Shown piece by piece: positions 4,283 through 61,152 of a DNA stretch of 64,000 nt. The position numbers and the translations under genes are program-made. Within the stretch, counting starts at the first letter, position 1, and every line of letters begins with the position of its first letter. Under the pieces are notes generated by a model. It made no database searches. It worked only from the letters and a program-made list of their open reading frames with translations, and had not been told where the DNA came from. This DNA comes from Eledone cirrhosa (lineage: Eukaryota), in NCBI GenBank assembly GCA_964016885.1, contig OZ024741.1, positions 83,700,001-83,764,000 of the forward strand. The letters are read 5' to 3'.

Positions 4283-4446
<164 letters not shown>

Positions 4447-5884: not shown

Positions 5885-5929
5885 AATATTGCTGATGAGT
5901 TGTAACAACAACGAAACTAGTTCAATATT
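5885..5929 (+). ncRNA. Type I hammerhead ribozyme (family A)
   Basis: Identical motif to 4948-4992. Confidence 0.85.
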
Positions 5930-6222: not shown

Positions 6223-6286
<64 letters not shown>

Positions 6287-11229: not shown

Positions 11230-12220
11230 ATTGTTATATTTGACGATGCTTATGTAGCCAATATTGCCAATAGAAAGAAACACACACACCATATAATTTT
11301 CACTTAATCTTTATCTTTATAGTTCATTATTCACTCGTTTATCAAAGTTTTTTCGTCACATTCTGTGACCTTCTCAATGAACATCTGTCTTGTACTCCTC
11401 TTATTTGTGATCTCAAACATCTACTCCATCTTCTATTTGTTTTTGGAGGTATTTTTCGTGAATCGTGTCTGCGCATACGTTTGCGCCTGTGCGTTCGTCT
11501 GTGTGTATGTAATTGTGTTTGTCATGTCTATATCTGCTTTATGTGTGTGATAGTTTGTGTCTGTTTCCTCTATTCTAAAACAGGGGCTTTCTTCGAATGT
11601 ATGTCTTATTATTTCGGGATATTATCGGGGCTCCTGGTTTTTCTACTACGTTAATTTGGAGGTCCATTTTGTCTAAAGCGTTTCTAAAACAATAAGCTCG
11701 TTCGCCTCTAGGAGTAGTATGGACGCACATGACGCTCTCGTAATTTTTTCTGTCATACCATGATTTGGCCTTCTCTATATTTTTTCTTAGTCCTTTCTAT
11801 GCTATTCCATGACTTGCTCCTGTTGAGTGGGAACATCTTATTTGTATCATTCTCCATAATGATTTTGAATTTACCCATAGCTCCTTTTTACACCCTTAAC
11901 CTGTCTCTTTGGTTATAACCAGAGTACTACGTGTATTGGATGAAGTGTTGTATGTGTTTCTTTAACTATATGTTGGATCGCACAGGCGGAACACATTTCT
12001 TATCACCTTTACCTGGTCCGCTATCAAGATATTGAACGTAGCTCTATTTGCGATAGCTGAGCTTCAGTGGATCAGGTACTTGGAGGCCATGGGTTTGGTA
12101 TAATGTGAACGGGGATTTGAGCATTATTGTTCTTAGTTTCCATCCGGAGTTGTGTGTCTAATACAGGTATTCTATGGTTGGGGTGCTTAGTGATGTTGTC
12201 TGCTGTTACTTTAATACTTT
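11230..12220 (-). pseudogene. Decayed Penelope-like element, 3' half
   Basis: Minus strand reads KVTADNITKHPNHRIPVLDT...HYTKPMASKYLIH, homologous to the 2795 ORF; the terminus resembles 2506ff. Confidence 0.75.
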
Positions 12221-12279
12221 GAAAAACAGCATAATAGGAAGGATGGATGTAGTATCCATATACCCATCCATTGGTTTCG

Positions 12280-13380
12280 CTGCGGAAAATGTGTGGAGAT
12301 GATCAACGAGAACGATGTTGAGTTCCCAGCAATTGTCACTGAGAAACTGAGTCTCCTCCTGAGACTTACCTGTGACAGAGAATATCTACATGAATATAAC
12401 ATTTAATGTTTCTTCCCCAATAAACCTATAAGAGGTTGACGGCCCTTCACTGGCCAACGGATGGAGCAGAATCATACAGACCCCTGAAAACCACGAAAAG
12501 TCGAGAAGAAAGATCGCACATTTGTTTAAGTTCAATAATAAACCATACGCCAAAAGCATAGCGGCCATCGGTGTCTGCATGGCTGGTGATGTGACCAAAC
12601 TGGCTATGGTATGGTGAGACAGGAGAATCAAGGAAAGTTGAGAACTCCATAACCTTAAACATGTACACCTCCTATGTTGACGATATCAAGATAGTGATTC
12701 AAACTACCCCACGAGAGAGAACTCATGAATCTGAACAAGAAGCTAACACCATGGTGATCGTCCAGCAAATAGCTAACTCTATCCAGCAGAATATTAGGTA
12801 ACAGTAGACTACAGTAAGGTAACTAAGCACTCCACCTATATCAGACAAAATTAAAAGAAAACTGGCTAGAACTTATAGAGGAGAAAATATCATCAGTCCT
12901 ATACCAAACTAGATTAAGGGGGCTCAATAGATAACATAGAAACAAAGATCCTATCCATACATAGAACTGACGCAACACTCAGATATATCACGAAGGCAGT
13001 ACACGTAATTACATATAGACTTAGCCTGAACAGAAAAGACGAGTAGAAAGAGCACACAACTTCACGACTGAAACAGAATAGGGAAGAAAAGACACAAATA
13101 GCAAAAGATACAAATCCACGCATACATAAAACACACAGTGTGATAAACAGAAAAACACATACACACACACACACAAAAACGAAGGTGCATGCGCAAACGC
13201 ACGCCCAGACAAGAATTATGATGGAGTAGAATGTTAAGGCCAGATAAAAAAGCGGAGGCACAAAACATAAAGTCATTGAAGTGTTTACAGAATATGTGAC
13301 AAAAGAACTTTGACGAACGAATGAATAACAAAAGATAAAGATAAATGATCATCGCCAAAGATAACAATCTATATATTATA
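12280..13380 (+). pseudogene. Decayed Penelope-like element with RT core and deleted GIY-YIG part, inverted relative to 11230-12220
   Basis: Reads ..AAIGVCMAGDVTKLAMVW*D...MYTSYVDDI (RT motifs); ~12920-13050 resembles the end of the 2795 ORF. Confidence 0.7.
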
Positions 13381-22100: not shown

Positions 22101-23060
22101 TATTTTAAATTGTGAACAATTTATACTAGCCTTATCTAGTTCTCTGCAGAATACCCTATCGAGATACAATCTGGATGACCCGATGTTGTTTGTCCATGTC
22201 CATATTGGCACATTCCGGTGATTCAGTCGATACCTGCCAGACAGTTCAAAACGTCTGAGCAGGTTGGTGAGGCTCTTGCACCCTCCTCCCCTATTCACTA
22301 GTCCCACACAATCCCAGCGTGCATCCAAGATACCGTTCCAGTCGCCCACTAACACTAAAGAGCGGGACGTTCCAAGAAAGGTCTCTAGATATCTGAAGAA
22401 ATCTTGCCGTTCTGCCCCTGATGGGGCGTAGACGGCTACTAGCCTGAAAGCATTGCCTTCGCTGCCGGTCTCGTCCAGCACCACCGACTTACCTTCTGGG
22501 TCTAGGAAGATGGCCCGTATGGCGAGATCTAAGCATCTCCGAAAAAGGACGACAACCCCTCCCCCTGATCCTGGACGGATGGGAGACGCGTATACATCGT
22601 CGCCGCCGAAGATCGGTGCGAAGGCTTGGGCTTCGGAGATTCTGGTCTCACTGATGGACACCACATCTATGTTTAGTGACCTGAGGTCGTTGAGCAGGTG
22701 ACCCGGCTTCCAAGATGACCCCAGGCCACGTGCATTTATACTGCCTATTCTGAGTACGGCCATGTTGGATGAGAAACGGGGCAAGTGAGAAAGGGTCGCT
22801 TACCTTGATCGTGTGGTGAATGGACAGTAGAACCGTCCCTTTGGGTGGTCATGGGTGTTTCCAAGAGGATGTCAGTGTATATCCTCTTGGTAACCGTCCC
22901 TCAGAAGTCTCCAACTGCGTTGGGGAATTTTTGTTTTAAAGGTTTGTACTGTTCTATTGAGATTTCAAAGATGCGTATGTTTGTCAGGAGAGTTCTTGTT
23001 GTTGGAGGGTTGTAGTAGTTTTTTTTATGTGATGTCTGTGTGTTGCTTTATATATTGTAT
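19168..23060 (-). mobile_element. Tx1-like (L1 clade) LINE, frameshifted and 5'-truncated
   Basis: APE endonuclease ORF at 22044-22784 and broken RT ORFs (LDQSKAFDRVDH, AYADDV) homologous to 26453-29872; bounded by (TAA)n. Confidence 0.9.
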
Positions 23061-23080
23061 GATAATAATAATAATAATAA

Positions 23081-26000
23081 GAGAACGGAGGAACCATCCG
23101 AAACAGACAATGATCTGAATGCTGAAATAAATAATACCTAGAGCAAAGATACGGCCATTGAGGAGATGAATGCTGACGGGATAGGACAAGATCTGGTTGA
23201 TATCCTAACGTTAGTAGTAGATGAATTGAACAATGATAGTGGGAAACATATGAACCTAACATTTGTAGACAGGAAAAAGTTAAAAGAAACAACAGCTAAG
23301 GTAAACAACGTCATCCCATACCTTGAGGCGAGGAGCCTTCACCAGTGCAACAATATCCTCAAAGCAACAGCAAATGCGGTGAGGAAATTACTTGGTATAA
23401 AAGCGAGAGGAAACAACAAACAAGAAAGATCAGAGCCTTGGTGGAAGAAACGACTGAGTGGTCAAATCAGGGAAAGAGAAATGACATTGGAAGCTTGAGT
23501 CTACTGAATGGGACACTAAAAAACATCTACACTAAAAATAGACTGGAAATAAAGTACAAAACTAGGAGGAAAAAGCTAAATATTATCATAGAGGAACTAT
23601 AGCAACGCACTGTAGCAAAGAGTGCAAACATTAGGCGATACGAGAGCAGAGTCAGTCAGTATAGACATAACCGCATGTTTGACAACAACCAGAAGATGGT
23701 GTTTGGACAGCTTGAGCGGAAAGAAAGAGGCAACGACTTGATCCCTGAGGCGGAACAAACTAAAACATTCTGGAGAGGAATATGGGAGCAGGATGTTAAA
23801 CATAGTGACCAGGCAGTGTGGATTGAGACAGTACAGAAGGAGATTAGTGAACAGGCACACCAACAAACTGACTTGAGTATCACAGTTGAAACTCTTAAGG
23901 GGCAGGCCAAAAATCTAACCAACTGGAAATCACCAGGCCCAGATGGTGTGCAGGGGTATTGGATTAAAAATATAACATCCCTCCACCTGAAACTGACAAG
24001 CATGTTCAATGACTGCTTGATGTCAGGTGAGGTACCAGAGTGGTTGACAAAAGGGACCACAGTTCTGGTAATGAAGGACTGAATCAAGGGTAATGATGTT
24101 ACCAACTATAGACCTATCACATGTCTGTCCGTAATGTGGAAACTGTTGACAGGCATTATGTCTGAGGAAATCTACCATCACCTCCACACAAACAACTTGT
24201 TACCGGATGAACAGAAAGGATGCCGAAAGAAGTCCCGTGGTACAAAGGACCAGTTACTTATTGATAAGATGGTAATGAGGAATTGCAAGAGGAGACACAC
24301 TGGTCTTGCCATGGGATGGATAGACTACAAAAAGGCATTTGACATGGTGCCTCATTCTTGGATCACCAAAAGCCTAGAGATCTTCAAGGTGGCAGATAAC
24401 ATCAGACAGTTGTTGGGCAAAAGTATGAAGTCCTGGGAAACAGAGTTAACATCAGCTGGAGAATCCTTGGGAGGCGTGAAGATCTAGAGAGGTATCTTCC
24501 AGGTTGATAGTCTGTCCCCTCTGTTGTTTGGCCTTGCCCTGATGCCCCTGGCCATTATACTGCGAAAAGTGAGAGCAGGATACAAGTTGGGAAAGGGAGA
24601 GCTTACCATCAATCTCCTCTTCATGGACGATCTTAAGCTCTTCGGGAAGAGTGAGAAGGAGTTGGATGTGCTTGTTGACACTGTCCGTATTTTCAGCAAT
24701 GATATATGTATGCAATTTGGTATTAGTAAGTGTGGAGTCCTTGTGATGAAGAGGGGTAAACTGAGCAGAAGCAACGGAATCCAGGTACCAACAGGTGAGA
24801 TGATAAAAGAAATTGACACTGAAGAAGGATATAAGTATTTGGGTGTTCTGGAGGCTGATGACATCAAGAACAAAAAAATGAAGGAATTGATAAGAACTGA
24901 ATACATTCGGAGAGTAAGGAGCGTATTCAAGTCACATCTGAACAGTAGGAATGCCATAAGTGCAGTAGATTCCCGAGCTGTGTCTATTATTAGGTACAGT
25001 GCAGGAATTCTGAGATGGGATGTTGCTAAACAAAAATAAATGGATAGGAAGACTAGGAAGCTATTGACTATCTACAACATGTTCCACAAGAGGAGTGATG
25101 TCGATAGACTATACTTAAGGAGATTTGAAGGTGGAAGAGGTCTTATCAGCATAGAGGACTGTGTTCAGATGGAGAAAAACAACCTACACAAATACGTGAC
25201 TGATAGTAAGGAGCCAATGCTCAGAACTCTACTGAAGGAGAGGACAATAGACCAGGGAATGTCCAAGGAGGAAATAACAACAAGGAGAAAGAGCAGCCTT
25301 CAGGAAAAATCCCTTCATATTACCTCTTTGAGAAAACTGAATTCAGAGATCCACAGACATGGAACTGGTTGAAAAGAGGAGACCTTAAAAAGGCTACAGA
25401 AGGAATGTTAATGGCTGCGCAAGAGCAGGCTCTCAAAACGAAGTGGTTGACCACCATATTTACAAGGAGGAGGCTAGCCCGCTGTGCAGGATCTGTGGAG
25501 AGAGAGAGGAGACTGTGGCTCACATTGTATCCGAGTGTAAACACCTAGCCCAGACTCACTATAAGGGCTGGAGACATGATGTGATGGGCAGGGTGATCCA
25601 CTGGCACCTACGCAAAGTAAACAATTTACCACATTCTGAGAAGTGGTATGAGCATAAGCCAGAGTCGGTGATAGAAAACGATCAGGTGAAGGTGCTGTGG
25701 GATTTTAGGATACAGACAGACAAGAAACTGGAACACAATAGACCTGACCTGGTGGTTTTGGACAAAGAAAAAAGATCGTGCCTGATTGTGGATGTGGCCT
25801 GCCCATTCGACACGAGAGTGCAAGAGAAGGAGAGGGAGAAAATTAACCGATACAAGGACTTAAAGTGGGAGGTAAAAAGGATTTGGAACTGCCATGAAGT
25901 CAAAGTGGTCCCGATTGTCATAGGCGCACTAGGTACTATCTCAAAATGTTTTTTCAGGGATGGTTAAAGAAAATTGGCCCCATCACACTTTTTGGAACGC

Positions 26001-26133
26001 TTCAAAAGGCATGCTTGTTGGGAACAGCAAGAACCCTCCGATACGTCCTGAATATATGAGGCTGCAGGTAGTGGCTTGATATTAATTTCAACAAACTTTC
26101 CAGTTAACTAACATCAATGACTGAGACTCAAAG
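23081..26133 (+). mobile_element. R4/Dong-like LINE family 1, 5'-truncated, with multiple stops and frameshifts
   Basis: Fragments [34 protein letters not shown]...C and RPDLVV; (TAA)n on both sides. Confidence 0.9.
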
Positions 26134-26136
26134 AAC

Positions 26137-26200
<64 letters not shown>

Positions 26201-26452
26201 TTTTGTTTTCTTTATTAACCACAAGGGTTCACATAAAGTAGACATTAAGGACAGTACAGGACAATACAGGACAATACAGGACGGTACAAATGGGCATTTC
26301 TGCGTGTAAAAAAACAGAGGTTGAAATAACAAAGAAAAATTCCCCAATAGGGGGGAGACTTCCAAGGGACATTTGTGGAGAAAGCCCATTAAAAGACCAC
26401 AGTGGCCCTGACCACCATGGCAAGTGCCCTCTCCCAGTTTTACACCTTTAAT

Positions 26453-29400
26453 TTACAGAGACATACTCAGAGAAGGCCCATTCATTCGGGCCATACTTGC
26501 TTCTCTCACCCATCTTTCAACAAAATGCTGGGAAGAGAGCACTTCCCTCTCTACTCTGATTTTCCTTTTCAAATGAAATTTGAAAAAGTCAATCAGAGCA
26601 TCACCGAAGAGGTAAGTGCTCGTCTTCAGCCCTTTCAAACGTGTCCACCATACTATCTCTTTCGCCATGGCCACCAGACAGATAAAAACTGCCTGCCCTT
26701 CCCGGCTAAAGGAGGAGGGCGGGGCAATCCTCACGTTGGACTCAGATGATAGCCGGATCCGTCCTAAACGCGACAGCAGGTGTTCGACATAAACCCACAA
26801 GTCAGCAATTTTCGGACACTGGACGAGTGCGTGCAGGACGGTTTCGTCGCCCTGCGCGCATCTCGGACATGCCCGGCTGACGGCACCTCCATGCCTGTAG
26901 AGTTTATCCCGAACTGGCAAGGCTCCTCGGTAGCACTGCCAGGCCAGAGATTTCTGGAAGTTGTCCATAGGCCCTGGCCCGAAAGTTCTTCCGAAGAGAT
27001 TGGCTAGTTGATTTTCGTCGACGCCTAGAGTTTCCCCAAGTACGTCGTCGTTCTTCCCCTCCACTAATCCTCTATAGAACGCCGAGGTGGAGTTTCCACC
27101 GATCACATTGCCCGATTGGTCGAGGGCTGTGAGCGCCTGAAGACATTCCAGTCTCGAGGCGCTCCCTCTCGGTCTTCGCTTGACCCAGGACTGCAGCTCC
27201 GTCAAGGAAACGAGCTGGGGAAATACGCGTCTAGCAAACGGCGACCACACCTGATCACCGTCGAGGAAGAGGTGGAGATGTCGTAGCCTGAGCGCGTGCC
27301 TGCGCATCATCAGCCACGGTTTGCCCAGCCCTCCACGTAGCGGGTGTTGACAACAGATGGACCGCCTGACCATCGGAGCACGTCCCTTCCACAAAAAGCG
27401 AAAGAGCAAACGCTCCAGCGCAGTCAGGCGAGGCTTAGGACAAGGTACGACGGTCAGGCGATAGCAGATGACAGACGCGATGTACGCGTTAGCCACCTCC
27501 GCTCGACCTTTCAGGGATAGCTTCCTCTCCGCCCATTTCTGGGTGAGAGAAGCCACCCTGCTCGTCACCTCGTCCCAGTTTTTGTCCGTCTGGAGGTCCG
27601 GACCGAACCAGACCCCTAGCAATTTAACCGGTCCGTCCGTCCAGCGTCCGACGACGCTGTTGGACGGCATGGACCTGCCTCTCCAGGTGCCGAGCTGCAG
27701 GCCCACTGACTTTTCCTGGTTGATCATTGCTCCTGTCACCGCTTCGTATTCTCTTAGTGTAGTGCCGATCGCCTCGATGTGTTTGGCGTTCGACACAACT
27801 ACGGTGACATCGTCCGCATATGCTGACACGGATCTTCCGCATCCTAGTTCGCGCGGGACGCCCCTCAACGTCTCCAGTTTGTGCAGTAATGGCTCGAGAG
27901 TCAATACGTACAAGAGGGACGAGAGGGGACATCCTTGGCAGACCGAGCGCATGATGTTGAACGGTTCCGACAGGTGACCGTTCACTCTCACCACAGAGCA
28001 GATGTCGCTGTGCATGGCAGCGATCCAGCCTCTGAAGACGGGCCCAAAGCCAGCCGCCCTCAGGACTGCCGCTAGGTAACGATGGTCGACCCTATCGAAA
28101 GCTTTCGACTGATCTAAATTGATCAAGGACCCACCCGTGCCAGGTTCCCTAGCTACCCTCTCTACGATGTATCGCATGAGGTGGAGGTTGTCGTGGATGG
28201 ATCTGTCGGGAATGGCGCATGTCTGCGCCTCTCCCACCAGACCACCAACGACAAGCGCCAACCTCTTTGCTAGCACCTTGGCCAAAATCTTAAACTCTGT
28301 GTTTAGCAGAGTTATGGGCCGGAAATTTTCTATGTTATCCCTCTTGTTCGGATCCTTTCTCAGCAGTGCCACCGCTCCTCGGCTCACAGAACTGGGAATT
28401 CTCCCGTTCTGTTGCCAGTTGCAGTAGACGTCCGCCAAGAGGCCTCCGAACAAGTCTGGCATCTGTACGTAAAGTTCATAGGGCAGACCATCCAAACCAG
28501 GCGATTTACCCCTTGTGCAGCCAGTCATTGCCTCCCTTACTTCAGCGGCTGTTATCGGCTTTTCGCAACACTTCGCCTCAGTGGCCGAGAGCCGCGGCAG
28601 TCCGTCGAGGTAGACACTAAAGTCCATCCCTCGACCCGGCCCACCGCTGCCCCCGAACAGCTGAGCGAAGTGTCGCTGAAAAGCTTCACACATTTGCCCG
28701 GGATCGAGTAGCATGCGCCCGTCGTGTTCCACCAAAGACCGGATCGTGGATTTGTTGCCACGACGCGCCTCCGCCACTCGGGCCCATTGAACGGCTTTCG
28801 TCCCCTCGTGTCTGAGAGCACGCACCCTTGCTCTGACAACGCAGCCTTCGTGCTTTGCATTGAAGAATTGGTCAAGGGCCAATTTCGCCGCAAGCACGTC
28901 GGTCGCAATGCCTTTGCTAAGCGCCTCGTCTAATTTTCTAACTAGTTCTCCCTCTGCTCTATTTTTCTCTATTGCTAAAGCCTTACTAAACCTAATGGAT
29001 TCTATTCTAATCGCTCTTTTCAGAGCAAACCACCACTTGTTGTTGACGATGGCCCCCGTCAACGCCCGCTTAACTAGTTCGCTAATCCGGTCTCTGTAGG
29101 CCTTGCACGCTGGTAAGGACGCGTTTAGCTTCCAGTAGCCGGGTCCTCGTCTATGAAGCCTATCTAAGTCAAGCACACAGATCACGAATTTGTGGTCCGT
29201 GTAGCTGACTATCTTGAATTGTGGACAGCCTATGCTAGACCTATCTATTTCCCTACAAAATACTCAATCTAGATATGATCTGGATGACCCTATGCGATTT
29301 GTCCAAGTCCACATTGGCGCATTCGGGAAATCCAATCGGTACCTGTCAGACAGTTCAAAACGCCTGAGCAGGTTGGTGAGGCTCTTGCACCCTCCACCCC

Positions 29401-29872
29401 TATCCGCTAATCCCACACAGTCCCAGCGTGCATCTAAGATCCCGTTCCAGTCGCCCACTAACACTAAAGAGCGGGACGTTCCAAGAAAGGTCTCCAGACG
29501 CCGGAAGAAATCAGGCCGCCCTGCTCCTGTCGGGGCATAGACGGCCACTAGCCTGAAAGCTTGCCCGTCTCCGCTGGTCACGTCCAGCACCACCAGCTTA
29601 CCCTCTGGGTCCAGGAAGATGGCCCCTATGGCCAGATCCAAACCTCTCCGAAAAAGCACAGCAACTCCTCCACCCGATCCAGGGCGCCTGGGAGATGCGT
29701 ACACATCGTAGCCGCCGAAGATCGGTGCGAAGGCCCGTGCTTCGGAGATTCTGGTCTCGCTGATGGCCACTACATCTATGTTTAGTGACCTGAGGTCGTT
29801 GAGCAGGTGACCCTGCTTCCATGACGACCCCAAGCCACGCGCATTTATGCTGCCTATTCTGAGTGAGGTCAT
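26453..29872 (-). pseudogene. Tx1-like ORF2 (APE endonuclease + reverse transcriptase + C-terminal zinc finger) with a single in-frame TGA
   Basis: ORFs 29264-29872 and 26453-29185 are in the same frame, separated by the TGA at 29264-29266 (Arg in the paralogue YLDRVFC); motifs SINARG, GDWN, KSPGLDG, LDQSKAFDRVDH, QGCPLS, AYADD, CPRC..H...C. Confidence 0.92.
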
Positions 29873-29907
29873 GTTTAAAATAGAGTGGAAAAGATGGGAA
29901 AGACCAC

Positions 29908-31988
29908 TTACCGTACTTTTGGTAGAGGAGGGATGGTTTTTACATCCCTTTTCACTTGATCGTCTGGTGAAGGGACCGTTGAATCGTCCCTTCGGCTGGT
30001 CGTCGGCTCTTCTAAGAGAATGTCTGAATATACTCTTCGATTGATGGTTCCTCCTAGGTCCCTGAAATCACCAACTGCGTTGGGGAATTTCGTTTTAATG
30101 TTTGTGTATTGTTTCTGTGCTATTTTTAGCAGTCTTATGTTAGTTGGCGTTTTGATTGGTGCTGGTATTATGTAGTCCTGTTGTGAAATGTCTGTGTGTT
30201 CAATTATGTAAGTCATTAGTTTCTTGTTGTGTGTATTTATTGCCGTGCATTTGTTTTTCTGGGGGTGGGGTGTGGTTCTGCTATTTTCTTGTCGTTGTTG
30301 CTGGGTGTGTGTGTTTTGTTGTTGTGTTTGCGATGTTGGTGCTTGTGGTGGTGGTGTTGAAGGTGTTGTTGGCGGTGGGGTTGTCGCCGGTGGTGATGGT
30401 GGTGCTAGTGTGGGTGGTTATGGTGTTGGTGGTGTTGCTGCTGTGGGTCTCTTTGCAGTAGACTTTACCCTTTTCTCATTTCTTTCCTCCCTTTTCAAAG
30501 GCGACGATGCGCTGCTTCTGCGTTTGTGCCTTCTTACGACCTTTTGCCATCCCTCTCCCACCTCACACTCCATGTCTGATTCTGTGAGGTCGGGGAGGGG
30601 TACCAGCTCCACTCTTTCACTTGTTGTTGTTGGTGATGTTTACACTGGAGTCTCTGTTGCAGCTGCGTTTGGTATTGCTGTTGTTGTTAATATTTCCACT
30701 GCTGCTGCTGTTTTTGATTTCCGTGGCGTGGGTATGGGTGCCACGGACCTATCGTTCCTGGTTGCCGCTTGTCCTGTTGCTGGTAGCAGTGGAGCCGTAT
30801 TCGGAAGGAGGGGGTTTTCTCCTTTCTCAGGGTCTTCTCGTTGCAGAAGGCCCTGAGGTGAGTCTTCGATCCACAGCGAAAGCATTTCGGGCGTTTGCCC
30901 TCAACACTTATGGGAAGTTGCGTGCCGTTATCGAAGTCTATCACATCCGGGATAGCTTCGATGCACTCCTGGTTGGTTTGGATTAGCATCTCAATGGAGG
31001 TGCCGACCCAATCTTCTCTTACTTTTTTCTGTACTTGCAGTACAGTTGTTTTGTCCTCGATTCCGACGAGGACAGACGCAGCCAGCCAAGAAGGGGTCAT
31101 TCCGGGGGGTACGTGGGTCAGTTTGACCCTCACAATTTTTTTCCCGCAGTAGGAGGGCACCAACACCATTTCCTCGCTCCTTAGGGTCACTACGGATTGG
31201 GCCTTTGCCTCCTGGGGTGTGGCAAAAAGTACGTCTACGGTGGCATATTTTTTGCCTCGGGTGATGTGCGTTTTCCGCTGCCACACAGACCCCAAGGCTT
31301 TTTGTATTTGGGCCTCTGTGGCTCTTTCCACCCTACGGGATTTTGTACTTACTGTACGGTACGTGACCGTACAGTGCTCTTGGGTTTCGAAACATTTTTC
31401 CGCTGCCTTGCAGATTGCTCGGTGTCCATTCTTTGTCACCATCTTCTTCGCTTCCTCTAATTCCTCATTTGTTATGAGGATTGTTTCCAAGTTTTTCGCA
31501 ATACCTGCAAATGAGATTGGTTTTTCTTTGCTGCTGTTGTCGTCAGAGCTTTTGTTGTTGCTGCAGGTACTACGACTACTGCCTTCGCCGCTGTTGCTGT
31601 GGTTGTTGTTGGTGTTGCTGCTGCTAATGCTGTTGTTGTTTATGCTGCTGGTGATGCTGTTGCGGCTGCTACTGTTGTTTTCATTGTCACTGTTGCTGTT
31701 GTTATTACGGCTGCTACTGCTATTATTCCTGACGTCAGACGAATGAACTGGGTTTTCGTATTTCCCGCACACCTGTTTCGTCGCTGTCGTCGTCGTCGTG
31801 GAGAAACCTTGCATGCTTTGCACGAGACTTTTCTTTTCTTTCGTCACTTGCGAAAGAGAAGGGAGGGAGAGAGACACATTTAAAGAAGGGAGGGAGAGAG
31901 ACAATCTTCTCTCTGCTGTAGTGACGATTGAGGAAGAAGAAGACGGAATGAGTGGGAGTGACCTATGCAAATTCTTTTTCGTAGCCAT
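29908..31988 (-). pseudogene. Tx1-like ORF1 (nucleic-acid-binding protein), disrupted
   Basis: Starts MATKKN; Asn/Ser-rich tract; CCHC knuckle CFRCGSKTHLRAFC; frameshift near 30840 and stops at ~30640 and ~30418 in the downstream frame. Confidence 0.8.
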
Positions 31989-32232: not shown

Positions 32233-33350
32233 AAGGGAATCACATGTTTGGATGATCAAACTCGTTTTGAAACACGAAAGCATCAAAAGATCATACTCCA
32301 TTACAAAAGATGCACAAAGATACAGTAATGGACTACAAATTTCAGAATTCCCATTTACTGCTGAAATGGAAAACACAGAAAAAGCAAAGCAGATAAAAGT
32401 AACTGCAAAGAAAGAACTGCCACAGAAACTGGCTAAGAAATGGCAAGAAAAGCCTCTGTATGGAAAATAACCAGAACGAGCTAACAATCCTGATGTTGAC
32501 AAAACTTTAACCCATCAGTGGTTGGCATCTTCTGGACTGAAATCGGAGACTGAAGGACTGATTATATCAGCACAAGACCAGTGTTTGCCAACAAAAAATG
32601 ACCAAGCCAACATAATAAAATATGGATGCAGCCCATTATGCCGTGTATGTAAAAAAAAACCATAGTCCATTGACCATATAATTTCAATGTGCAGTCCTAT
32701 AGCTCCAACCGAACACCTAAACAGGCATGACAGAGCTGCACAATACATACATTGGATAATGTGTAAGCATTTTGATCTGCCCCATCAAAAGAATTGGTGG
32801 GAGCATCAACCACCTCTCATACATGAAAAAGATCACATCTCAATCTTGTGGAACTTTAGCATCCAAACAGACCGAAAAGTAGATGCAAATAGACCTGATA
32901 TAATATTGAAGGACTTCAAAAAGAGGGTATGCCTGCTAATTGATATGTCCGTTCCAAAAGACAAGAATGTATCTATAAAAACATTTGAAAAATTGAGCAA
33001 GTATAAGGACCTGGAGATAGAAATTGGAAAAATGTGGAAATTGAGAACTAAAACAATACCAGTGGTTGTAGGCGCTCTAGGAATGATACCTAAGGGGTCT
33101 AATGATTACTTATCGCAAATCCAAGAAAACCCGCGTATAGGAGAAATACAAAAGATAGTACTAATGGGAACTGCCCATATACTAAGGAAGATTCTGTCAA
33201 TATAAGTACATCACAAGTCTAAACACCTAAAGATGCATGTGTGAGTATGTATGTTCTTTCTTGAACATGGTGGACCTTGTTGTCTCTTGAGGTCACTGGT
33301 TGTGACTTGGTGATAACTCGTATGAACATAAAGCAAGATAAATGCAGCTA
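32233..33350 (+). mobile_element. R4/Dong-like LINE family 2, 3' fragment
   Basis: RHDRAA...NRPDIILKD...LIDMSVP...EKLSKYKDL (PD-(D/E)xK restriction-like endonuclease); (TAA)n on both sides. Confidence 0.88.
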
Positions 33351-33372
33351 TAATAATAATAATAATAATAAT

Positions 33373-33555
33373 AATTGTTTCTACTTTAGACACAAGGTCA
33401 GCAATTATACCAGTACATTACTGGTACTTTATTTTATCGACCCGTAAGGATGAAAGGCAAAGTTAACCTGGGCGGGATTTGAACTCAGACTGTAAAGGGA
33501 CGTATCTATGCTAGAAAGCATGGCGTCCAACCCTCTACCGATACTGCCAATTCAC
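33373..33555 (-). mobile_element. Nin-domain SINE
   Basis: Match to 371-556, within (TAA)n. Confidence 0.85.
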
Positions 33556-33561
33556 GGTACT

Positions 33562-33595
<34 letters not shown>

Positions 33596-33597
<2 letters not shown>

Positions 33598-35043
33598 TTA
33601 CAAATATCTAGGTTTTTGTGAAGGAGACGGAATCAAGCACTCGACAATGAGGTAAAGGATAAGGAAGGAATGTTACCGCAGAGTAAGAGTAATCTTAAGA
33701 ACGGAATTGAATGCAGGGAATAGGATCGATGCCATAAACACGCTTGCCATACTAGTAGTAACCTACAGTTACAATTTCATCAACTGGTCAAGCACAGAGA
33801 TCCGTAGGCTCGATACAAAAATTAGAAAATTCTTAACCATGCACAGAATGCATAGAATATATCTCCCTAGGAAAGAAGGAGGTCGTGGGTTAATCCAGTT
33901 AGATATTGCGTTGAAAACTGCAACAATTGGATTATCTACATATCTAAGGGAATCACATGATTGGATGATCAAACTCGGTTTGAAACACGAAAGCATCAAA
34001 AGATCATACTCCATTACAAAAGATGCACAAAGATACAGTAATGGACAACACATTTCAGAAGTTCCATTTACTGCTGAAATGGAAAACACAGAAAAAACAA
34101 AGCAGGTAAAAGTAACTGCAAAGAAAGAACTGCTACAGAAACTGGCTAAGAAATGGCAAGAAAAGCCTCTGTATGGAAAATACCCAGAACGAGCTAACAA
34201 TCCTGATGTTGACAAAACTTTAACCCATCAGTGGTTGGCATCCTCTGGACTGAAATCGGAGACTGAAGGACTGATTATATCAGCACAAGATCAGTGTCTG
34301 CTAACAAAAAATTACCAAGCCAACATAATAATAAATTGATGCAACTCATTATGCCGTGTATGTAAAAAACAATCAGAGACCATTGGTCATATAATTTCAA
34401 TGTGCAGTCCTATAGCTCCAACCGAATGCCTAAACAGGCATGACAGAGCTGCACAATACATACATTGGACCATGTGTAAGCATTTTGATCTGTCCCATCA
34501 AAAGAATTGGTGGGAGCATCAACCACCTCTCATACATGAAAAAGATCACATCTCAATCTTGTGGAACTTTAGCATCCACACAGACCGAAAAGTAGATGCA
34601 AATAGATCTGATATAATACTGAAGTACTTTAAAAAGAGGGTATGCCTGCTAATTAATATGTCCGTTCCAATAGACAAGAATGTATCTATACAAAACATTT
34701 GAAAAATAGAGCAAGTATAAGGACCTGGAGATAGAAATTGAGAACTAAAACAATACCAGTGGTTGCAGGCGCTCCAGGAATGATACCTAAGGGGTCTAAT
34801 GATTACTTATCGCAAATCCAAGGAAAGTATAGGAAAAATACAAAAGATAGTACTAATGGGAACTGCCCATATGCCAAGGAAGATTCTGTCAATATAAATA
34901 CATCACAAGTCTAAACACTTCAAGATGCATGTGTGTGTATATATGTTCTTTCTTGAACATGGCGGCCCTTGTTGTCTCTTGAGGTCACTGGTTATGACTT
35001 GGTGATAACTCGTATGAACATAAAGCAAGATAAATGTAACTGT
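33596..35043 (+). mobile_element. R4/Dong-like LINE family 2, longer 3' fragment
   Basis: YKYLG...RIYLPRKEGGRGL...ETEGLIISAQDQ; closely similar to 32233-33350. Confidence 0.88.
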
Positions 35044-42450: not shown

Positions 42451-43823
42451 CCAATAACTGCCAGGTAGGTATAATCAACTATTTACCTTTAACAAATATG
42501 GTTCCTTGTGTTTATATTAGAAGGCAATACGTTGCTGGGTCTTATTTTAGACTCGAAGATGATAAAAAAGTAAAATCTCAGAGATGTGCGTCACCTCACA
42601 AACACGGTTTCTGCATTAAACCACACTAATTTAATGAATTCACTTGATTGAACCACATTAACCGTCGAAATTGACGAAAATTCATATTTGCTTTAAGAAA
42701 TGAAAAATATTTCATAATTTCGAGTGCTACTTGTATGTGGTGGTACGTGTTTAACAGCTAGAGTGTATGTTTGATAATCGTTTGTTCGGTTGCCGGCTAC
42801 GAGATGTGTCTTTCATGCTGAATTTCTTGCACGTTACGTCCCTAGCACTCTGTTTTGTTGATTATATCAACTGAAGCACTCATCCCTAGAAATGAATGAG
42901 GTGCTACACACATACACATTGCTCGTACATATATAATAATTGTGAGTGGAAAACATATAGTTGATACATGATTTATTTGTTAAAGAAGCGTGTTTCAGTT
43001 AATTTAGCCTCTGCAGACATCGTTATCTAAAAACCTCCTTCTTCCCCGGCATCGAAAATTTCTAAAAGTAATTGTTTATAATATGCGTGAACGAATGAGT
43101 ATCTTTAGATGAATTAGTTTCTGTTAATGAATTAAAATTTCGCTTCTCAAAGATAATTGTTGGTAATTAATATCGAATTGCTTTTTTTCAAATTTTCATA
43201 TGATTAATATATAATTATTTTAAAATGTTCTATGTAAAAATATACCAACACATGAAGTGGAAAACATAACAGAAAATTACGATAAAGACATTTTCAAAGT
43301 TATAGATAACTAGAATATTCTCAATTAATTTGGAAAGACTTGAAAACAAAACACAAAATAATAATTCTTTTAATAAGCGTCTTTCATGAAGATAAATATT
43401 CTGTAACCAAAATATTGAAATCCATATTTAAAAAAAAGACATAAACGAGTCACACAGCCGCGAATAATGTGACTAATATCCAAATATGACTAATCAACTG
43501 TTCGGCTAAGTGTCTCGTATATAATGTTAAGTCAGTATTAGATAGGAACAAATAAGGCTGCGTGTATAGTTAAGAATTTCTCTTCTCCAAACCGCTTGAT
43601 TATATGTTCCATTTAACTAATGCGGCTCCATGGGTGAAAATGTTTGTATATATACAGTGTGCATAAACATCCAAAGTATAATATTAAAACATAACAATTA
43701 AATCAAAAGAAAAAATTAAATTTGAATAAATATCAAATGAAAAAATGTAATGTGGCCTTTACAAATAAGCTACAACGGGAAAATATGATGGAACTATAAT
43801 GTGTATATATATATTATTATTGC

Positions 43824-43877
<54 letters not shown>

Positions 43878-43881
<4 letters not shown>

Positions 43882-45685
43882 TGTATATATAGTGTATTTT
43901 ACAATACACTTTATGCTTAATTAAAAGCATTTTGAAGACCGTATGCTATTGTTTTAGAGTAGTGACAGACTCACTTACTTTAATCTCAGCAAACAGAAGG
44001 AGATGAAGCTGACAAGGACTTGTTTCTGCATTTGTTGATACTCATCAAAGCCAAGTACTCCCCCGTCTGCTGAGATTACGGATGTTATTTTCTTATAGAA
44101 TTCTAGTAAATAATCAGGAACTGATTATACAGAGCGGGTGCCGGTCAAGCAGAAATTACAAATTAGAATTGGTGCTCTGAAATAGCCATATATATATGAA
44201 TGTATATATAGTGTATTTTGCAATAGACTTTATGCTTAATTAAAAGCATTTTGAAGACCGTATGCTATTGTTTTAGAGTATTGACAGACTCACTTATTTT
44301 AATCTCAGCAAACAAGGCGAGATAAAGCTGACAAGGCCTTGTTTCTGCATTTGTTGATACTCATCAAAGCCAAGTACTCCCCCATCTGCTGAGATTACGG
44401 ATGCTATTTTCTTATAGAATTTTGCTTGACCAGCAACCGCTCTGTATAATCAGTTCCTGATTATTTACTAGAATTCTATAAGAAAATAACATCCGTAATC
44501 TCAGCAGACGGGAGAGTACTTGGCTTTGATGAGCATCAACAAATGCAGAAACAAGGCCTTGTCAGCTTTATCTCCCCCTGTTTGCTGCGATTAAAGTAAG
44601 TGAGTCTGTCACTACTCTAAAACAATAGCATACGGTCTTCAACATGCTTTTAATTAAGCATAAAGTGTATTGCAAAATACACTATATATACATTCATATA
44701 TATATATGGCTATTTCAGAGCACCAATTCTAATTTTTAATTTCTGCTTGACCGGCAACCGCTCTGTATAGTCAGTTCCTGATTATTTACTAGAATTCTAT
44801 AAGAAAATAATATCTGTAATCTCAGCAGACAGGGGATTACTTGACTTTGTTGAACATCAACAAATGCAGAAACAAGACCTGGTCAGCTTTATCTCCCCCT
44901 GTTTGCTGAGATTAAAGTAAGTGAGTCTGTCACTACTCTAAAACAATAGCATTCGGTCTTCAAAATGCTTTTAATTAAGCATAAAGTCTATTGCAAAATA
45001 CACTATATATACACATTCATATATATATGGCTATTTCAGAGCACCAATTCTAATTTTTAATTTTTGCTTGGCCGGCAACCGCTCTGTATAATCAGTTCCT
45101 GATTATTTACTAGAATTCTATAAGAAAATAACATCCGTAATCTCAGCAGACGGGTCAGTACTTGGCTTTGATGAGCATCAACAAATGCAGAAACAAGGCC
45201 TTGTCAGCTTTATCTCCCCCTGTTTGCTGCGATTAAAGTAAGTGAGTCTGTCACTACTCTAAAACAATAGCATACGGTCTTCAACATGCTTTTAATTAAG
45301 CATAAAGTGTATTGCAAAATACACTAGATATACATTCATATATATATGGCTATTTCAGAGCACCAACTCTAATTTTTAATTTCTGCTTGACAGGCAACAG
45401 CTCCGTATAATCAGTTCCTGATTATTTACTAGAATTCTATAAGAAAATAACATCCGTAATCTCAGCAGACGGGGGAGTACTTGGCTTTGATAAGTATCAA
45501 CAAATGCAGAAACAAGGCATTGTCAGCTTTATCTCCCCCTGTTTGCTGAGATTAAAGTAAGTGAGTCTGTCACTACTCTAAAACAATAGCATACGGTCTT
45601 CAAAATGCTTTTAATTAAGCATAAAGTGTATTGCAAAATACACTATATATACATTCATATATATATAGCTATTTCAGAGCACCAA

Positions 45686-45691
<6 letters not shown>
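43878..45691. mobile_element. Hammerhead-bearing tandem array, family C (319-321 bp monomers, inversion at ~44420); retrozyme-like
   Basis: About 1.7 monomers on the minus strand, then about 4 on the plus strand; flanked by (TA)n; one ribozyme-like motif per monomer. Confidence 0.82.
44522..44567 (+). ncRNA. Variant type I hammerhead (family C); other copies at 44007-44052(-), 44326-44371(-), 44843-44888, 45164-45209 and 45483-45528
   Basis: GGCT-TTGATGA-GCAT-CAACAA-ATGC-A-GAAAC-AAGGCCTT-GTC-AGCT; U replaces C3, extra A before GAAA, palindromic ACAAGGCCTTGT stem III, long distal stem I. Confidence 0.7.
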
Positions 45692-45738
<47 letters not shown>

Positions 45739-46022
45739 GAATAACGAAACGAAATTAAATTTCGCTTCGTTTGTAACTCACTTTTGTATGACTGACGCTT
45801 AAACAATTAAGTTAAAAATGTACATCCACATATGTATACTGAAATACTAGTATGCATATGAATACACACACGTGTACATATGTAGATGTACCGAGTTTTT
45901 CACTGGACACTTTACTGTGAGTGTTCAGTTAGTCTGTATGTAAACACAGACAAACCGGTTTTTAGAGTCATACTGGTTTTCGAGGAAACACCTTTCCTCT
46001 CTTCTCCAGAAAGCCAGACAGG

Positions 46023-46067
46023 AATATTGGACTAGTTTCGATGTTGTTACATCTCATCAGCAATATT
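46023..46067 (-). ncRNA. Type I hammerhead ribozyme (family A)
   Basis: Reverse complement of AATATTG-CTGATGA-GATGT-AACA-ACATC-GAAAC-TA-GTC-CAATATT. Confidence 0.9.
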
Positions 46068-46486
46068 TACCTATCCTCCGGCCTTTCTAGAGAATCGTAA
46101 AAGCACATATCGTTATATGCTTTATCTATGAAAATTAGTAGTGGGCAGACTAATTTGCATAGAGCGTGAGTACGTACCGGTTCAGCGGAGACGATAAAAA
46201 CAAATAACGAAACGAAATTAAATTTCGCTTCGTTTGTAACTCACTTTTGTATGACTGACGCTTAAACAAGTAAGTTAAAAAATGTACATCCACATATGTA
46301 TACTGAAATACTAGTATGCATATGAATACACACACGTGTACATATGTAGATGTACCGAGTTTTTCACTGGACACTTTACTGTGAGTGTTCAGCTAGTCTG
46401 TATGTAAACACAGACAAAGCGGTTTTAAGAGTCATACTGGTTTTCGAGGAAACACCTTTCCTCTCTTCTGCAGAAAGCCAGACAGG

Positions 46487-46531
46487 AATATTGGACTAGT
46501 TTCGATGTTGTTACATCTCATCAGCAATATT
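46487..46531 (-). ncRNA. Type I hammerhead ribozyme (family A)
   Basis: Same motif, 464 bp from the previous copy. Confidence 0.9.
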
Positions 46532-46727
46532 TACCTATCCTCCGGCCTTTCTAGAGAATCGTAAAAGCACATATCATTATATGCTTTTTCTATGAAAATT
46601 AGTAGTGGGCAGACTAATTTGCATAGAGCGTGAGTACGTACCGGTTCAGCGGAGACGATAAAAACAAATAACGAAACGAAATTAAATTTCGCTTCGTTTG
46701 TAACTCACTTTTGTCGGAGGATAGGTA

Positions 46728-46772
46728 AATATTGCTGATGAGATGTAACAACATCGAAACTAGTCCAATATT
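46728..46772 (+). ncRNA. Type I hammerhead ribozyme (family A)
   Basis: Canonical core CUGAUGA/GAAAC/GUC with perfect stems I and II. Confidence 0.9.
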
Positions 46773-47191
46773 CCTGTCTGGCTTTCTGGAGAAGAGAGGA
46801 AAGGTGTTTCCTCGAAAACCAGTATGACTCTAAAAACCGGTTTGTCTGTGTTTACATACAGACTAGCTGAACACTCACAGTAAAGTGTCCAGTGAAAAAC
46901 TCGGGACATCTACATATGTACACGTGTGTGTATTCATATGCATACTAGTATTTCAGTATACATATGTGGATGTACATTTTTTAACTTAATTGTTTAAGCG
47001 TCAGTCATACAAAAGTGAGTTACAAACGAAGCGAAATTTAATTTCGTTTCGTTATTTGTTTTTATCGTCTCCGCTGAACCGGTACGTACTCACGCTCTAT
47101 GCAAATTAGTCTGCCCACTACTAATTTTCATAGAAAAAGCATATAATGATATGTGCTTTTACGATTCTCTAGAAAGGCCGGAGGATAGGTA

Positions 47192-47236
47192 AATATTGCT
47201 GATGAGATGTAACAACATCGAAACTAGTCCAATATT
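47192..47236 (+). ncRNA. Type I hammerhead ribozyme (family A)
   Basis: Same motif, 464 bp downstream. Confidence 0.9.
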
Positions 47237-47933
47237 CCTGTCTGGCTTTCTGGAGAAGAGAGGAAAGGTGTTTCCTCGAAAACCAGTATGACTCTAAAAA
47301 CCGGTTTGTCTGTGTTTACATACAGACTAGCTGAACACTCACAGTAAAGTGTCCAGTGAAAAACTCGGTACATCTACATATGTACACGTGTGTGTATTCA
47401 TATGCATACTAGTATTTCAGTATACATATGTGGATGTACATTTTTTTAACTTAATTATATATATATATATATATATGTATGTATATATATATATGTGTGT
47501 GTGTGTGCGTGTGTGTGAGTTTGTGTGTGTGTCTGTGTCTGTGTCTGTGTCTGTGTGTATGTGTGCTTATGCGTGCGTGCGTTTGTGTGTGTGCACATAC
47601 ATGCATACATGCATACATAATATCCTGAGCATACACCAAATGACTGGCTCCACAAATAAAAGACTGAGGAAATATGATAACTGACGCTCAAACATCATAT
47701 ATGCAATGTGCAATAGCTCATCTACTACACTTTGTTCTCAAATTGTTAAAAGTAATACCACATCACACAAACAACAGCCTCTAATGCACATTAAAGTGAT
47801 TTTATCTAGAACAAAAGTAGCTGGTTCTCAAAGGAAAAAATGCATGCAATGGTTTATTTACCACACTTTATTATGAATCAACTAAAAGATAACACCAAGC
47901 TATAGTTTATACACCCAATACAAACAAACAAAG

Positions 47934-58283: not shown

Positions 58284-58320
58284 AATAATAATAATAATAA
58301 TAAATGACTGAGACTCAAAA

Positions 58321-58374
<54 letters not shown>

Positions 58375-58375
<1 letters not shown>

Positions 58376-60423
58376 GTAATGATGTTACCAACTATAGACC
58401 TATCACATGTCTGTCCGTAATGTGGAAACTGTTGACGAGCATTGTGTCTGAGGAAATCTACCATCACCTCCACACAAACAACTTGTTACCGGACGAACAG
58501 AAAGGATGCCGAAAGAAGTCACGTGGTACAAAGGACCAGTTACTTATTGATAAGATGGTAATGGGGAATTGCAGGAAGAGACACACTGATCTTGCCATGG
58601 GATGGATAGACTACAGAAAGGCATTTGACATGGTGCCTCATTCTTGGATCACCAAAAGCCTGGAGATCTTCAGGGTGGCAGATAACATCAGACAGTTGCT
58701 GGGCAGGAGTATGGGGTCCTGGGAGACAGAGTTGACATCAACTGGAGTATCCTTGGGAAGCGTGAAGATCAAGAGAGGTATCTTCCAGGGAGATAGCCTG
58801 TCCCCTCTGTTGTTTGTCCTTGCCCTAATGCCCTTGACCATTATGCTGCGAAAAGTGAGAGCAGGATACAAGTTGGGAAGGGGAGAGCTTACCATCAATC
58901 ACCTCCTCTTCATGGACGATCTTAAGCTCTTCGGGAAAAGTGAGAAGGAGTTGGATGTGCTTGTTGACACTGTCCGTATTTTCAGCAGTGATATATGTAT
59001 GCAGTTTGGTATTGGTAAATGTGGAGTCATTGTGATGAGGAGGGGTAGGTTGAGCAGAAGTAGCGGGATCCAGATACCAACAGGTGAGATGATAAAGGAA
59101 ATTGACTCTGAGGAAGGATACAAGTATTTGGGCGTTCTGGAGGCTGATGGCATAAAGAACAAAAAAATGAAGGAATTGTTAAGAACTGAATACATTCGGA
59201 GAGTAAGGAGCGTATTGAAGTCACATCTGAACAGCAGAAATGCCATAAGCGCAGTAAATTCCCGAGCTGTGTCTATTATTAGGTACAGTGCGGGAATTCT
59301 GAGATGGAATGTTGCTGAACAAAAAGAAATGGATAGGAAGACTAGGAAGCTATTGACTATCTACAACATGTTCCACAAGAGGAGTGATGTCGATAGACTC
59401 TACCTAAGGAGATCTGAGGGTGGAAGAGGTCTTATCAGCATAGAGGACTGTGTTCAGATGGAGAAAAACAACCTATACAAATACGTGACCTATAGTAAGG
59501 AGCCAATGCTCAAAACTGTACTGAAGGAGGGGACAGTAGGCCAGGGGATGTCCAAGGAGGAAATAACTTCAAGGAGGAAGAGCAGCCTTAAGGGAAAATC
59601 CCTTCATAGTACCTTCTTTGAGAAAACTGAATTTAGAGATCTACAGACATGGAACTGGTTGAGAAGAGGAGACCTCAAAAAGGCTACAGAAGGAATGATA
59701 ATGGCTGCGCAGGAGCAGGCCCTCAAAACGAAGTGGTTGAAGCACCATATTTACAAGGAGGAGGCTAGCCCACTGTGCAGGATCTGTGGAGAGAGAGAGG
59801 AGACTGTGGCTCACATTGTGTCCGAGTGTAAACACCTAGCCCAGACCCACTATAAGGACTGGAGACACGATGTGATGGGCAGGGTGATCCACTGGCACCT
59901 GTGCAAAGTAAACAATTTACCACATTCTGAGAAATGGTATGAGCATAGGCCGGAGGCGGTGATGGAGAACAATCAGGTGAAGGTGCTGTGGGATTTTAGG
60001 ATACAGACGGACAAAAAACTGGAACACAATAGACCTGACCTGGTGGTTGTGGACAAAGAAAAAAGATCGTGTCTGATTGTGGATGTGGCCTGCCCGTTCG
60101 ACACGAGAGTGCAAGAGAAGGAGAGGGAGAAAATTAACCGATACCAGGACCTAAAGTGGGAGGTGAAAAGGATTTGGAACTGCCATGAAGTCAAAGTGAT
60201 CCCGATTGTCATAGGCGCACTGGGGACTATCTCCAAATGTTTCCAGGGATGGTTAAAGAAAATCGGCCCCTTCACGCTTTTTGGAACGCTTCAAAAGGCA
60301 TGCTTGCTTGGAACAGCAAGAACCCTCCGATACGTCCTGAATATCTGAGGCTGCAGGTAGTGGCTTGATATTCATTCCAACGGACTTTCCAGTTAACCAA
60401 CATCAATGACTGAGATTCAAGGA
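58375..60423 (+). mobile_element. R4/Dong-like LINE family 1, 5'-truncated young copy
   Basis: Uninterrupted ORF plus short 3' UTR, bounded by (TAA)n. Confidence 0.93.
58420..60348 (+). CDS. R4/Dong-like ORF: reverse transcriptase + CCHC finger + restriction-like endonuclease (N-terminus missing)
   Basis: 642-aa open frame: [44 protein letters not shown]...[26 protein letters not shown]. Confidence 0.92.
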
Positions 60424-60434
60424 ATAACAACAAC

Positions 60435-60466
<32 letters not shown>

Positions 60467-60467
<1 letters not shown>

Positions 60468-61152
60468 CCTGATACTAACAAAACTTTAACCCATCAGTGG
60501 TTGGCATCCTCTAGACTGAAATCGGAGACTGAAGGATTGATTATATCAGCACAAGATCAGTGTCTGCCAACAAAAAATTACCAAGCCAACATAATAAAAA
60601 ATGGATGCAACCCATTATGCCGTGTACGTAAAAAAGAACCAGAGACCATTGATCATATAATTTCATTGTTCAGTCCTATAGCTCCAAATGAATACCTAGA
60701 CAGGCATGACAGAGCTGCACAATACATACATTGGATAATGTGTAAGCATTTTGACCTGCCCCATCAAAAGAATTGGTGGGAGCATCAACCACCGACCATA
60801 CTTGAAAAAGATGACATCTCAATCTTGTGGAACTTTAGCATCCAAACAAACCGAAAAATAGATGCAAATAGACCTGATATAATACTGAAGGACTTTAAAA
60901 AGAGAGTATGCCTGCTAATTGAACTGTCCGTTCCAATAGACAAGAATGTATCTATAAAAACATTTGGAGATAGAAATTGGAAAAATGTGGAAATTGAGAA
61001 CTAAAACAATACTAGTGGTTGTAGGTGCTCTAGGAATGAAACCTAAGGGGTCTAATGATTACTCATCGAAATTACCAGGAAACCCGCGTATAGGAGAAAT
61101 ACAAAAGATAGTCAAATGGGAACTGACCAGAAACTAAGGGAGATTCTGTCAA
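60467..61152 (+). mobile_element. R4/Dong-like LINE family 2, 3' fragment
   Basis: Homologous to 32490-33205. Confidence 0.85.

Follow-up and report, generated by a model that had tools for sequence, protein, structure and literature searches.

The 320-bp repeat at positions 43878-45692 of the Eledone cirrhosa window analysed here (64,000 nucleotides, G000:C2:83700001-83764000 of a 3.0-Gb assembly) is probably a non-coding non-LTR retrozyme that is copied by Penelope proteins into (TA)n, and whose hammerhead would be off in the single unit and cut at GUC only as a dimer. In the proposed mechanism, tandem units would be transcribed. In one unit, the 5′ strand of stem I together with U3-U4-G5 would pair with the 5′ half of the palindrome that forms stem III, and the core would be blocked. 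In two adjacent units, the palindromes would pair with each other, both cores would form, and a unit of ~320 nt would be freed and then ligated to a circle. A borrowed Penelope reverse transcriptase would use an internal start, at the TA run or, giving the tail, 25-33 nt past it, and would copy the uncut multimer or the circle to produce truncated tandems and inversions.

The window is AT-rich and crowded with microsatellites and retroelement ORFs. The array region has a GC content of 0.34 and contains no ORF of at least 150 amino acids; the 320-bp unit has stop codons in all three sense frames. The units (319-323 bp) stand in tandem and there is no LTR. An earlier note on this DNA had described six hammerhead motifs in one array; all six are present at 43878-45692, but they do not form a single uniform array, as four lie on the plus strand and two, inverted, on the minus strand. 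The insertion consists of a minus arm of ~1.7 units joined head-to-head to a plus arm of ~3.9 units, followed by a 25-nt tail, and lies between two (TA)n runs. The minus arm (43869-44421) contains one 5′-truncated unit (44421-44188) and one full unit (44187-43869), and ends in (TA)n with no tail. The plus arm (44420-45666) contains one 5′-truncated unit (44420-44705) and three full units (44708-45028, 45029-45347, and 45348-45666); two forward units have private variants in common, as after a local duplication. The tail on the plus strand (45667-45692), assigned in the survey of insertion-locus ends, is of the Penelope type and corresponds to the beginning of one more unit, after which the (TA)n flank follows. 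The target microsatellite is seen on the left at 43804-43891 and on the right at 45691-45735. Rfam miRNA matches on the array were rejected as hairpin or TA noise.

Immediately 3′ of the distal helix, every unit carries a conserved GTAAGT that resembles a 5′ splice site at the sequence level (45557-45562, plus strand, in the last plus copy). TTTCAG is conserved at the start of the next unit (e.g., 45352-45357), and the two together resemble the ends of a spliceosomal intron of ~125 nt. GTAAGT also occurs in the pLTR of an autonomous Penelope-like element, downstream of that pLTR's hammerhead. No joints at these splice-like sites were found in contigs of three public runs, which represent one sample and an unspecified kind of contig and have no bearing on expression.

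On the plus strand of the window, the predicted hammerheads lie at 44522-44567 (U3·G8 core at 44526-44532, extra A at 44547, perfect palindrome at 44551-44562, predicted cut after 44563), 44843-44888 (decayed, with A6U, G10.1A, and a broken palindrome; predicted cut after 44884), 45164-45209 (U3·G8, extra A, perfect palindrome, predicted cut after 45205), and 45483-45528 (U3-A8, extra A, one palindrome mismatch, predicted cut after 45524). Those on the minus strand lie at 44326-44371 (U3·G8, extra A, perfect palindrome, predicted cut at 44330) and 44007-44052 (U3·G8, extra A, one palindrome mismatch, predicted cut at 44011). U3 and the extra A are thus found in six of six copies, as had been claimed. 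The claimed UUGAUGA core is intact in four; one copy has UUGAUAA (45487) and the decayed one UUGUUGA (44847). Likewise, the 12-nt palindromic stem III is perfect in three copies and imperfect in the others. The long distal helix closing stem I is present in each unit, and the exact form that had been quoted is that of the last plus copy (45457-45554, with arms at 45457-45477 and 45533-45554). Stem II reads GCAU in two, GUAU in three, and ACAU in one of the six copies.

U4, G5, A6, A9, G12, A13, A14, the A15.1-U16.1 pair, and the NUH cut site are complete in five of the six, and two array hairpins tested fold better than dinucleotide shuffles (z = −7.3 and −4.0). At the 3-8 position, five copies have U·G and one has U-A, and in all six an A is inserted before G12, so that G12 does not directly follow stem II. 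A U3·G8 apposition is much slower than a Watson-Crick 3-8 pair. Because these two core features, the Watson-Crick 3-8 pair and an uninterrupted junction before G12, are lacking, the window copies are taken as candidate active hammerheads only.

Evidence for the ribozyme at the family level was obtained from a structure alignment of 35 copies, hand-picked from 44 candidates plus one window copy to span the subfamilies. In this alignment 94% of the cells of the named structure are paired, compared with 17-40% in slid controls, although the relatedness of the aligned copies makes such cell counts overstate the number of events. Two-sided changes occur at nine of 13 pairs (three of four in stem I, all four in stem II, one in stem III, plus the 3-8 pair). 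Stem III is a palindrome or near-palindrome whose sequence differs between subfamilies. The distal helix varies at 10 of its 12 consensus pairs, eight of them with two-sided changes, and RNAalifold independently predicts this helix and stems II and III, not stem I. The 3-8 pair and all three stems covary, which marks the motif of this family as a true hammerhead of type I with predicted cleavage. This bears out the proposal that a second retrozyme-like family with a hammerhead exists here apart from the neighbouring 464-bp one, to which the 320-bp array shows no BLAST similarity beyond TA runs.

The core residues and the NUH site are invariant in the 35 copies, an invariance inflated in part by the choice of loci by core pattern or best BLAST score. 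The YAANNA sequence of loop II and the bulge 5′ of stem I are also kept, the loop being fixed by the search pattern itself; we take the six-base loop and the bulge to resemble the Schistosoma tertiary-contact motif. The expectation that the core would be more conserved than its flanks failed: between subfamilies, conservation in the remainder of the unit equals or exceeds that in the core, the hairpin stems being the variable part. The question is therefore answered by covariation and not by a conservation peak. The standard models do miss this variant, as had been suspected: the Rfam hammerhead models gave no match on the six window copies or, at E ≤ 1, on the extra-A locus L085, and sister copies that do not carry the extra A scored 19-28 bits against a gathering score of 52.

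The family is dispersed over many contigs with ~4100 exact core matches genome-wide. A DNA search of the genome with the unit gave 2376 candidates, of which 40 were scored. Exact core-pattern searches covered 3 Gb, and the core is not a product of chance because the reversed-pattern controls gave no match. Within the close family, 904 exact matches have no extra A, and the first 100 of these listed comprise 98 U3-A8, one C3·A8, and one U3·G8 form. The extra A is found in 198 of the 1102 close-family exact matches (~18%), 188 with A8 and 10 with G8 (UUGAUGA), three of the latter in this window. A pattern for distant forms that left positions 3 and 8 free returned 3031 further rows (~3% listed twice), and 27 of 30 such loci fetched matched the monomer by BLAST at ~71-88% best identity. 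A hand count of 97 distinct distant-form matches listed gave 33 C-G, 61 U-A, two C·A, and one U·G at 3-8. The pair is thus of the Watson-Crick type in 94 of these 97 and in 98 of the 100 listed matches with no extra A. The normal core of the family is Watson-Crick U3-A8, a natural variant already published. Local expansion also occurs, as in the long tandem array of ~17 units of an older subfamily at L166:1959-7457; at L024 and L067, units of different subfamilies adjoin at one site, likely because a later copy inserted into the TA run of an older one.

The anatomy of the insertions was surveyed at 68 nonredundant loci with 121 arms. Both orientations are present at 44 of the 68 loci. The 3′ ends lie either at the TA run of the unit or 25-33 nt past it. 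Inverted loci usually combine both kinds of end, so that in most of them the 25-33-nt tail is seen at one end only; nearly all ends listed run into (TA)n. The flanks in which a target-site duplication of more than 4 bp, as in non-LTR retrozymes, would lie are themselves (TA)n. The predicted cut is run through by 104 of the 121 arms, a share inflated by the core-based choice of loci, and 42 exceed one unit. The 5′ ends are spread evenly, with two seen at the cut where 2.6 were expected. Because the arms span the cut and the 5′ ends are even, the template would have been an uncut multimer or a circle and not a cut linear monomer. At L007:1862-1865, the centre of an inverted insertion consists of exactly the four bases that come after the predicted cut, as if the reverse transcriptase had reached a cleaved 5′ end; as the number of arm ends at the cut is that expected by chance, this single case was rejected as a signal for reverse transcription of cleaved RNA.

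Matching marks, namely truncated tandems, an inverted copy, and a tail at one end, are described for Penelope-like elements (PMC8557442), and the Penelope tail is traced to two internal start sites of reverse transcription in the available portion of PMC11167929. According to the same portion, hammerhead mutants inserted as well as the wild type in a purified Penelope system, where the ribozyme cut only with the protein present. A 2026 preprint, in the part accessible, derives animal retrozymes from Penelope-like elements and argues from co-occurrence and pLTR similarity (bioRxiv 10.64898/2026.07.22.740005).

The genome contains an abundant young Penelope-like family with 37,264 candidates, the top 150 of them at 99-100% identity, and open frames of up to 1218 amino acids. 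Look-alikes of its product have HTH_animal, GIY-YIG, and RT domains; Pfam itself gave no match. The family has the same TA targets as the 320-bp unit and longer tails; beyond TA runs, the unit has no sequence in common with it, the single autonomous family compared. The young family is no more than a candidate helper. Fragments of Penelope elements close to some copies were considered as partners and set aside, as they look like neighbours at shared TA sites. The window itself holds a fragment of the young element at 2690-3706, a full copy of which (frame of ~1218 amino acids) lies at L161:2461-6114 on the minus strand. The element, presumably of the Neptune type by its motifs, inserts at (TA)n, has tails of ~45-60 nt, and carries a minimal hammerhead-like motif in its ~510-bp pLTR. 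Older inverted fragments of a more distant Penelope-like ORF, with 38-58% identity to the young family, occupy 11599-12795.

The proposed switch between monomer and dimer was evaluated by secondary-structure energies, in which tertiary contacts are ignored. The minimum fold of a single unit usually contains the blocking helix described above (5′ strand of stem I and U3-U4-G5 against the first half of the palindrome). Relative to this minimum, the hammerhead fold costs 2.6-7.5 kcal/mol in 13 of 16 single copies and 17-19 kcal/mol in the other three, in which the palindrome is damaged or changed. Across the 35 aligned copies the blocking helix is 95% paired, with two-sided changes at two of its seven pairs and two pairs invariant. 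Five natural tandem pairs were folded: the dimeric form is 8-27 kcal/mol more stable than two monomeric ones in each, and in four of them no more than 2 kcal/mol separate it from the minimum. When five single copies were doubled, it was itself the minimum. For the first forward pair of the window, which includes the decayed copy, the dimer lies 15 kcal/mol above the minimum. The model thus predicts a monomer that is kept off by core-palindrome pairing, and tandem pairs that favour the active dimer. Dimer-dependent cleavage is established for related motifs, as far as the portions of PMC7229834 and PMC6765202 drawn on here describe it. Against activity, only one of nine predicted Xenopus retrozyme dimers cleaved in vitro in the 2026 preprint (bioRxiv 10.64898/2026.07.22.740005).

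The extra A lies between C11.1 and G12, the latter being the general base of the hammerhead in the available portion of PMC6155905. It is absent from the distant subfamilies (three matches, all of them extra-A-type copies). Its history was followed on a tree of 98 near-full units, for which position 8 was masked, the extra-A column was taken out, and the distant C3-G8 group served as the root. On this tree, the extra-A label changes exactly twice (bootstrap range 2-2), and a single clade of extra-A copies is rejected (p-AU 0.011, 86 clearly labelled rows). A first tree of 80 rows with inadequate outgroups, which left the direction of the extra A unsettled and gave five changes to U3·G8 in unresolved forks, was superseded by that of 98 rows. 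As read from the sequences, the extra A is a derived insertion that was gained once and lost later. The order runs from forms with no extra A through its gain to several extra-A subfamilies, including that of the window, and after its loss to the subfamilies that hold 640 exact matches; the stage labels are rough and partly wrong for truncated copies. The loss may have been a deletion or a short patch from a copy with no extra A, and the few reversions at this step would fit recombination too. Compensatory changes became fixed during the extra-A period, in stem I (1.1 pair from U-A to C-G) as well as in the distal helix.

The most serious alternative, which we consider possible if somewhat unlikely, is that a Penelope-mobilised element has a real ribozyme whose catalysis is killed by the extra A, so that the extra-A copies, including all six here, spread as passengers until the A was purged. 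Such passengers would need only the 3′ end and the hairpin for insertion, and ribozyme activity was dispensable for insertion in vitro in the portion of PMC11167929 cited above; because hammerhead mutants inserted normally there, the spread of the extra-A form does not prove cutting. The position of the extra A beside the general base, its later loss, the greater number of exact matches with the post-loss stem I (640, against 198 with the A), and the arms that run through the cut would all fit a dead core. Against it stand the compensatory change at pair 1.1 while the A was present, the passage of the lineage through several successive extra-A subfamilies, and natural core insertions elsewhere (U13a, A6a) that keep activity as described in part of PMC3088659. 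The extra nucleotides in the available portions of PMC3088659 and PMC4209133 lie at 2a/2b, 6a, 9-10.1, and 13a. No report of an insertion between 11.1 and 12 was found in those of PMC3088659, PMC4209133, PMC6155905, and PMC11014351; Lünse 2017, figures, or supplements may contain one. Within the reading preferred here, of a retrozyme that cuts as a dimer, the chances that the U3-A8 form with the extra A cleaves are, in our estimate, about even, and such cleavage would probably be slower than that of the form with no extra A. That the U3·G8 extra-A copies of the window cut usefully is doubtful, and they are likely weak or dead.

A fully active hammerhead variant in which U3·G8 and the extra A are the family consensus, the view taken in the earlier note, is improbable, and the counts refute its consensus part. 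The combination makes up 10 of the 1102 close-family exact matches (~1%), and the UUGAUAA-type core with no extra A dominates. It has in its favour that G8 is common to six independent insertion sites on one sequence background, which suggests that the U3·G8 form itself was copied several times. However, six further sites of that background carry A8 (8 of its 18 matches), two more G8 copies adjoin A8 partners, the descendant subfamilies have A8, and the distant matches listed keep the 3-8 pair almost throughout. U3·G8 was copied a few times, yet it is a side form of the family. Against activity in general stands a pairwise saturation scan of another hammerhead, in which only the swap from C-G to G-C rescued the 3-8 pair and other changes in that region gave low activity (PMC9901934).

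The units might also be viroid-like circles that copy from RNA to RNA, with the genome archiving snapshots, which we regard as very unlikely. The subfamily consensuses differ at up to 43 columns, while copies are only ~2-3% from their own consensus (medians of 1.9-2.9% over six stages). The median difference between partners at one locus is 1-4% and shows no clear trend with age, as read from 2-6 loci per stage and from stage labels partly wrong for truncated copies. The predicted circle is highly structured (z about −6). However, no minus-strand ribozyme was seen, and the same pattern, including its tempo, is explained by serial retrotransposition in a brief burst by an error-prone reverse transcriptase. 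The fuller version, a ribozyme circle evolving at the RNA level in an animal, its stages archived by Penelope proteins and its extra-A core working and dimer-gated, is similarly remote; if true, ~40 changes would have been fixed between equally old-looking subfamilies, including the change from C3-G8 to U3-A8, a passing U3·G8, and a gain and loss beside G12. That a locally amplified minisatellite or satellite, or an error of assembly, bears a hammerhead look-alike by chance or as a fossil is scarcely credible despite the tandem units and the private variants common to two forward units, since the family is dispersed with stereotyped ends, the tertiary 3-8 pair covaries, and forms with and without the extra A both occur in contigs of the public runs X1-X3 (one sample, possibly not independent of the assembly).

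The closest known systems to the retrozyme proposed here are the metazoan non-LTR retrozymes of coral, mussel, and axolotl, which, according to Cervera & de la Peña 2020 (PMC7229834), likewise have non-coding low-GC tandem units of 150-450 bp, a type I hammerhead per unit with a palindromic stem III, thousands of copies, and a predicted self-paired circle. In contrast to these, the family described here has a mostly U3-A8 core, an extra-A subfamily, short and mostly inverted arrays, and Penelope-type tails, and its cleavage and circles are predicted from sequence. Penelope-like elements and their nonautonomous derivatives are alike in 5′-truncated tandems, an adjacent inverted copy, a tail at one end, and microsatellite targets, as far as described in the parts drawn on of PMC8557442, PMC11167929, and bioRxiv 10.64898/2026.07.22.740005, whereas the 320-bp unit has no ORF and no sequence link to the autonomous pLTR (one family compared), and has a full stem III and a closed stem I where the hammerhead of Penelope-like elements is minimal. 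The change from C3-G8 to U3-A8 is known from Perreault 2011 (PMC3088659) and from the Schistosoma Cercyon element (PMC4209133), both cited in part, but here a single homologous family contains C3-G8 and U3-A8 together with U3·G8 as a side form. Whole-model matches to Rfam Hammerhead_HH9 (RF02275) were obtained on sister subfamilies at 28.4 and 24.6 bits, below the gathering score, and the extra-A copies gave none at E ≤ 1.

Further elements were noted in the window. The second retrozyme-like family (464-471-bp units, 45731-47456 and 4441-6229) has a canonical CUGAUGA hammerhead in inverted arrays beside (TA)n, which score 34-38 bits with Rfam HH9. Its unit contains a 14-nt match to an element that precedes a U6 gene of this genome by 78 nt, and a matrix from three U6 genes scores it above 300 of 300 shuffles; by its sequence, the element is possibly an internal snRNA-type promoter. 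An snRNA-type promoter was rejected for the 320-bp units, where the same matrix gave no signal (23-286 of 300 shuffles scored as high) and local alignment to the U6 and U2 upstream regions gave TA-rich matches only. A third small family at L118:1300-1600 (minus strand) has a long distal helix and a C3-G8 hammerhead whose stem III is palindromic, and it shares the U6-like upstream motif of the 464-bp family. The U6 search of the genome returned ~419,000 first-look candidates, and two top matches (L201 and L202) lie in TA-rich DNA with no upstream element, which hints at many U6-derived retrocopies. ORFs of non-LTR retrotransposons lie at 20076-30067, 23603-25967, 32666-34339, and 58312-61004, with endonuclease-RT frames at 26453-30067 and C-terminal nuclease-like domains in others.

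The tails, inversions, and (TA)n targets of the 320-bp family supply mechanistic marks for the proposal that Penelope proteins move animal retrozymes. The family offers a handle on how much the core tolerates and on whether cleavage matters for the spread of retrozymes. Searches that require C3 and G8 would miss its U3-A8 majority, and retrozyme counts are likely too low as a result. Within a single genetic background, the family amounts to a set of natural hammerhead-core mutants (C3-G8, U3-A8, and U3·G8, with or without a base beside G12), and the copy numbers of the core forms serve as a rough read-out of fitness.
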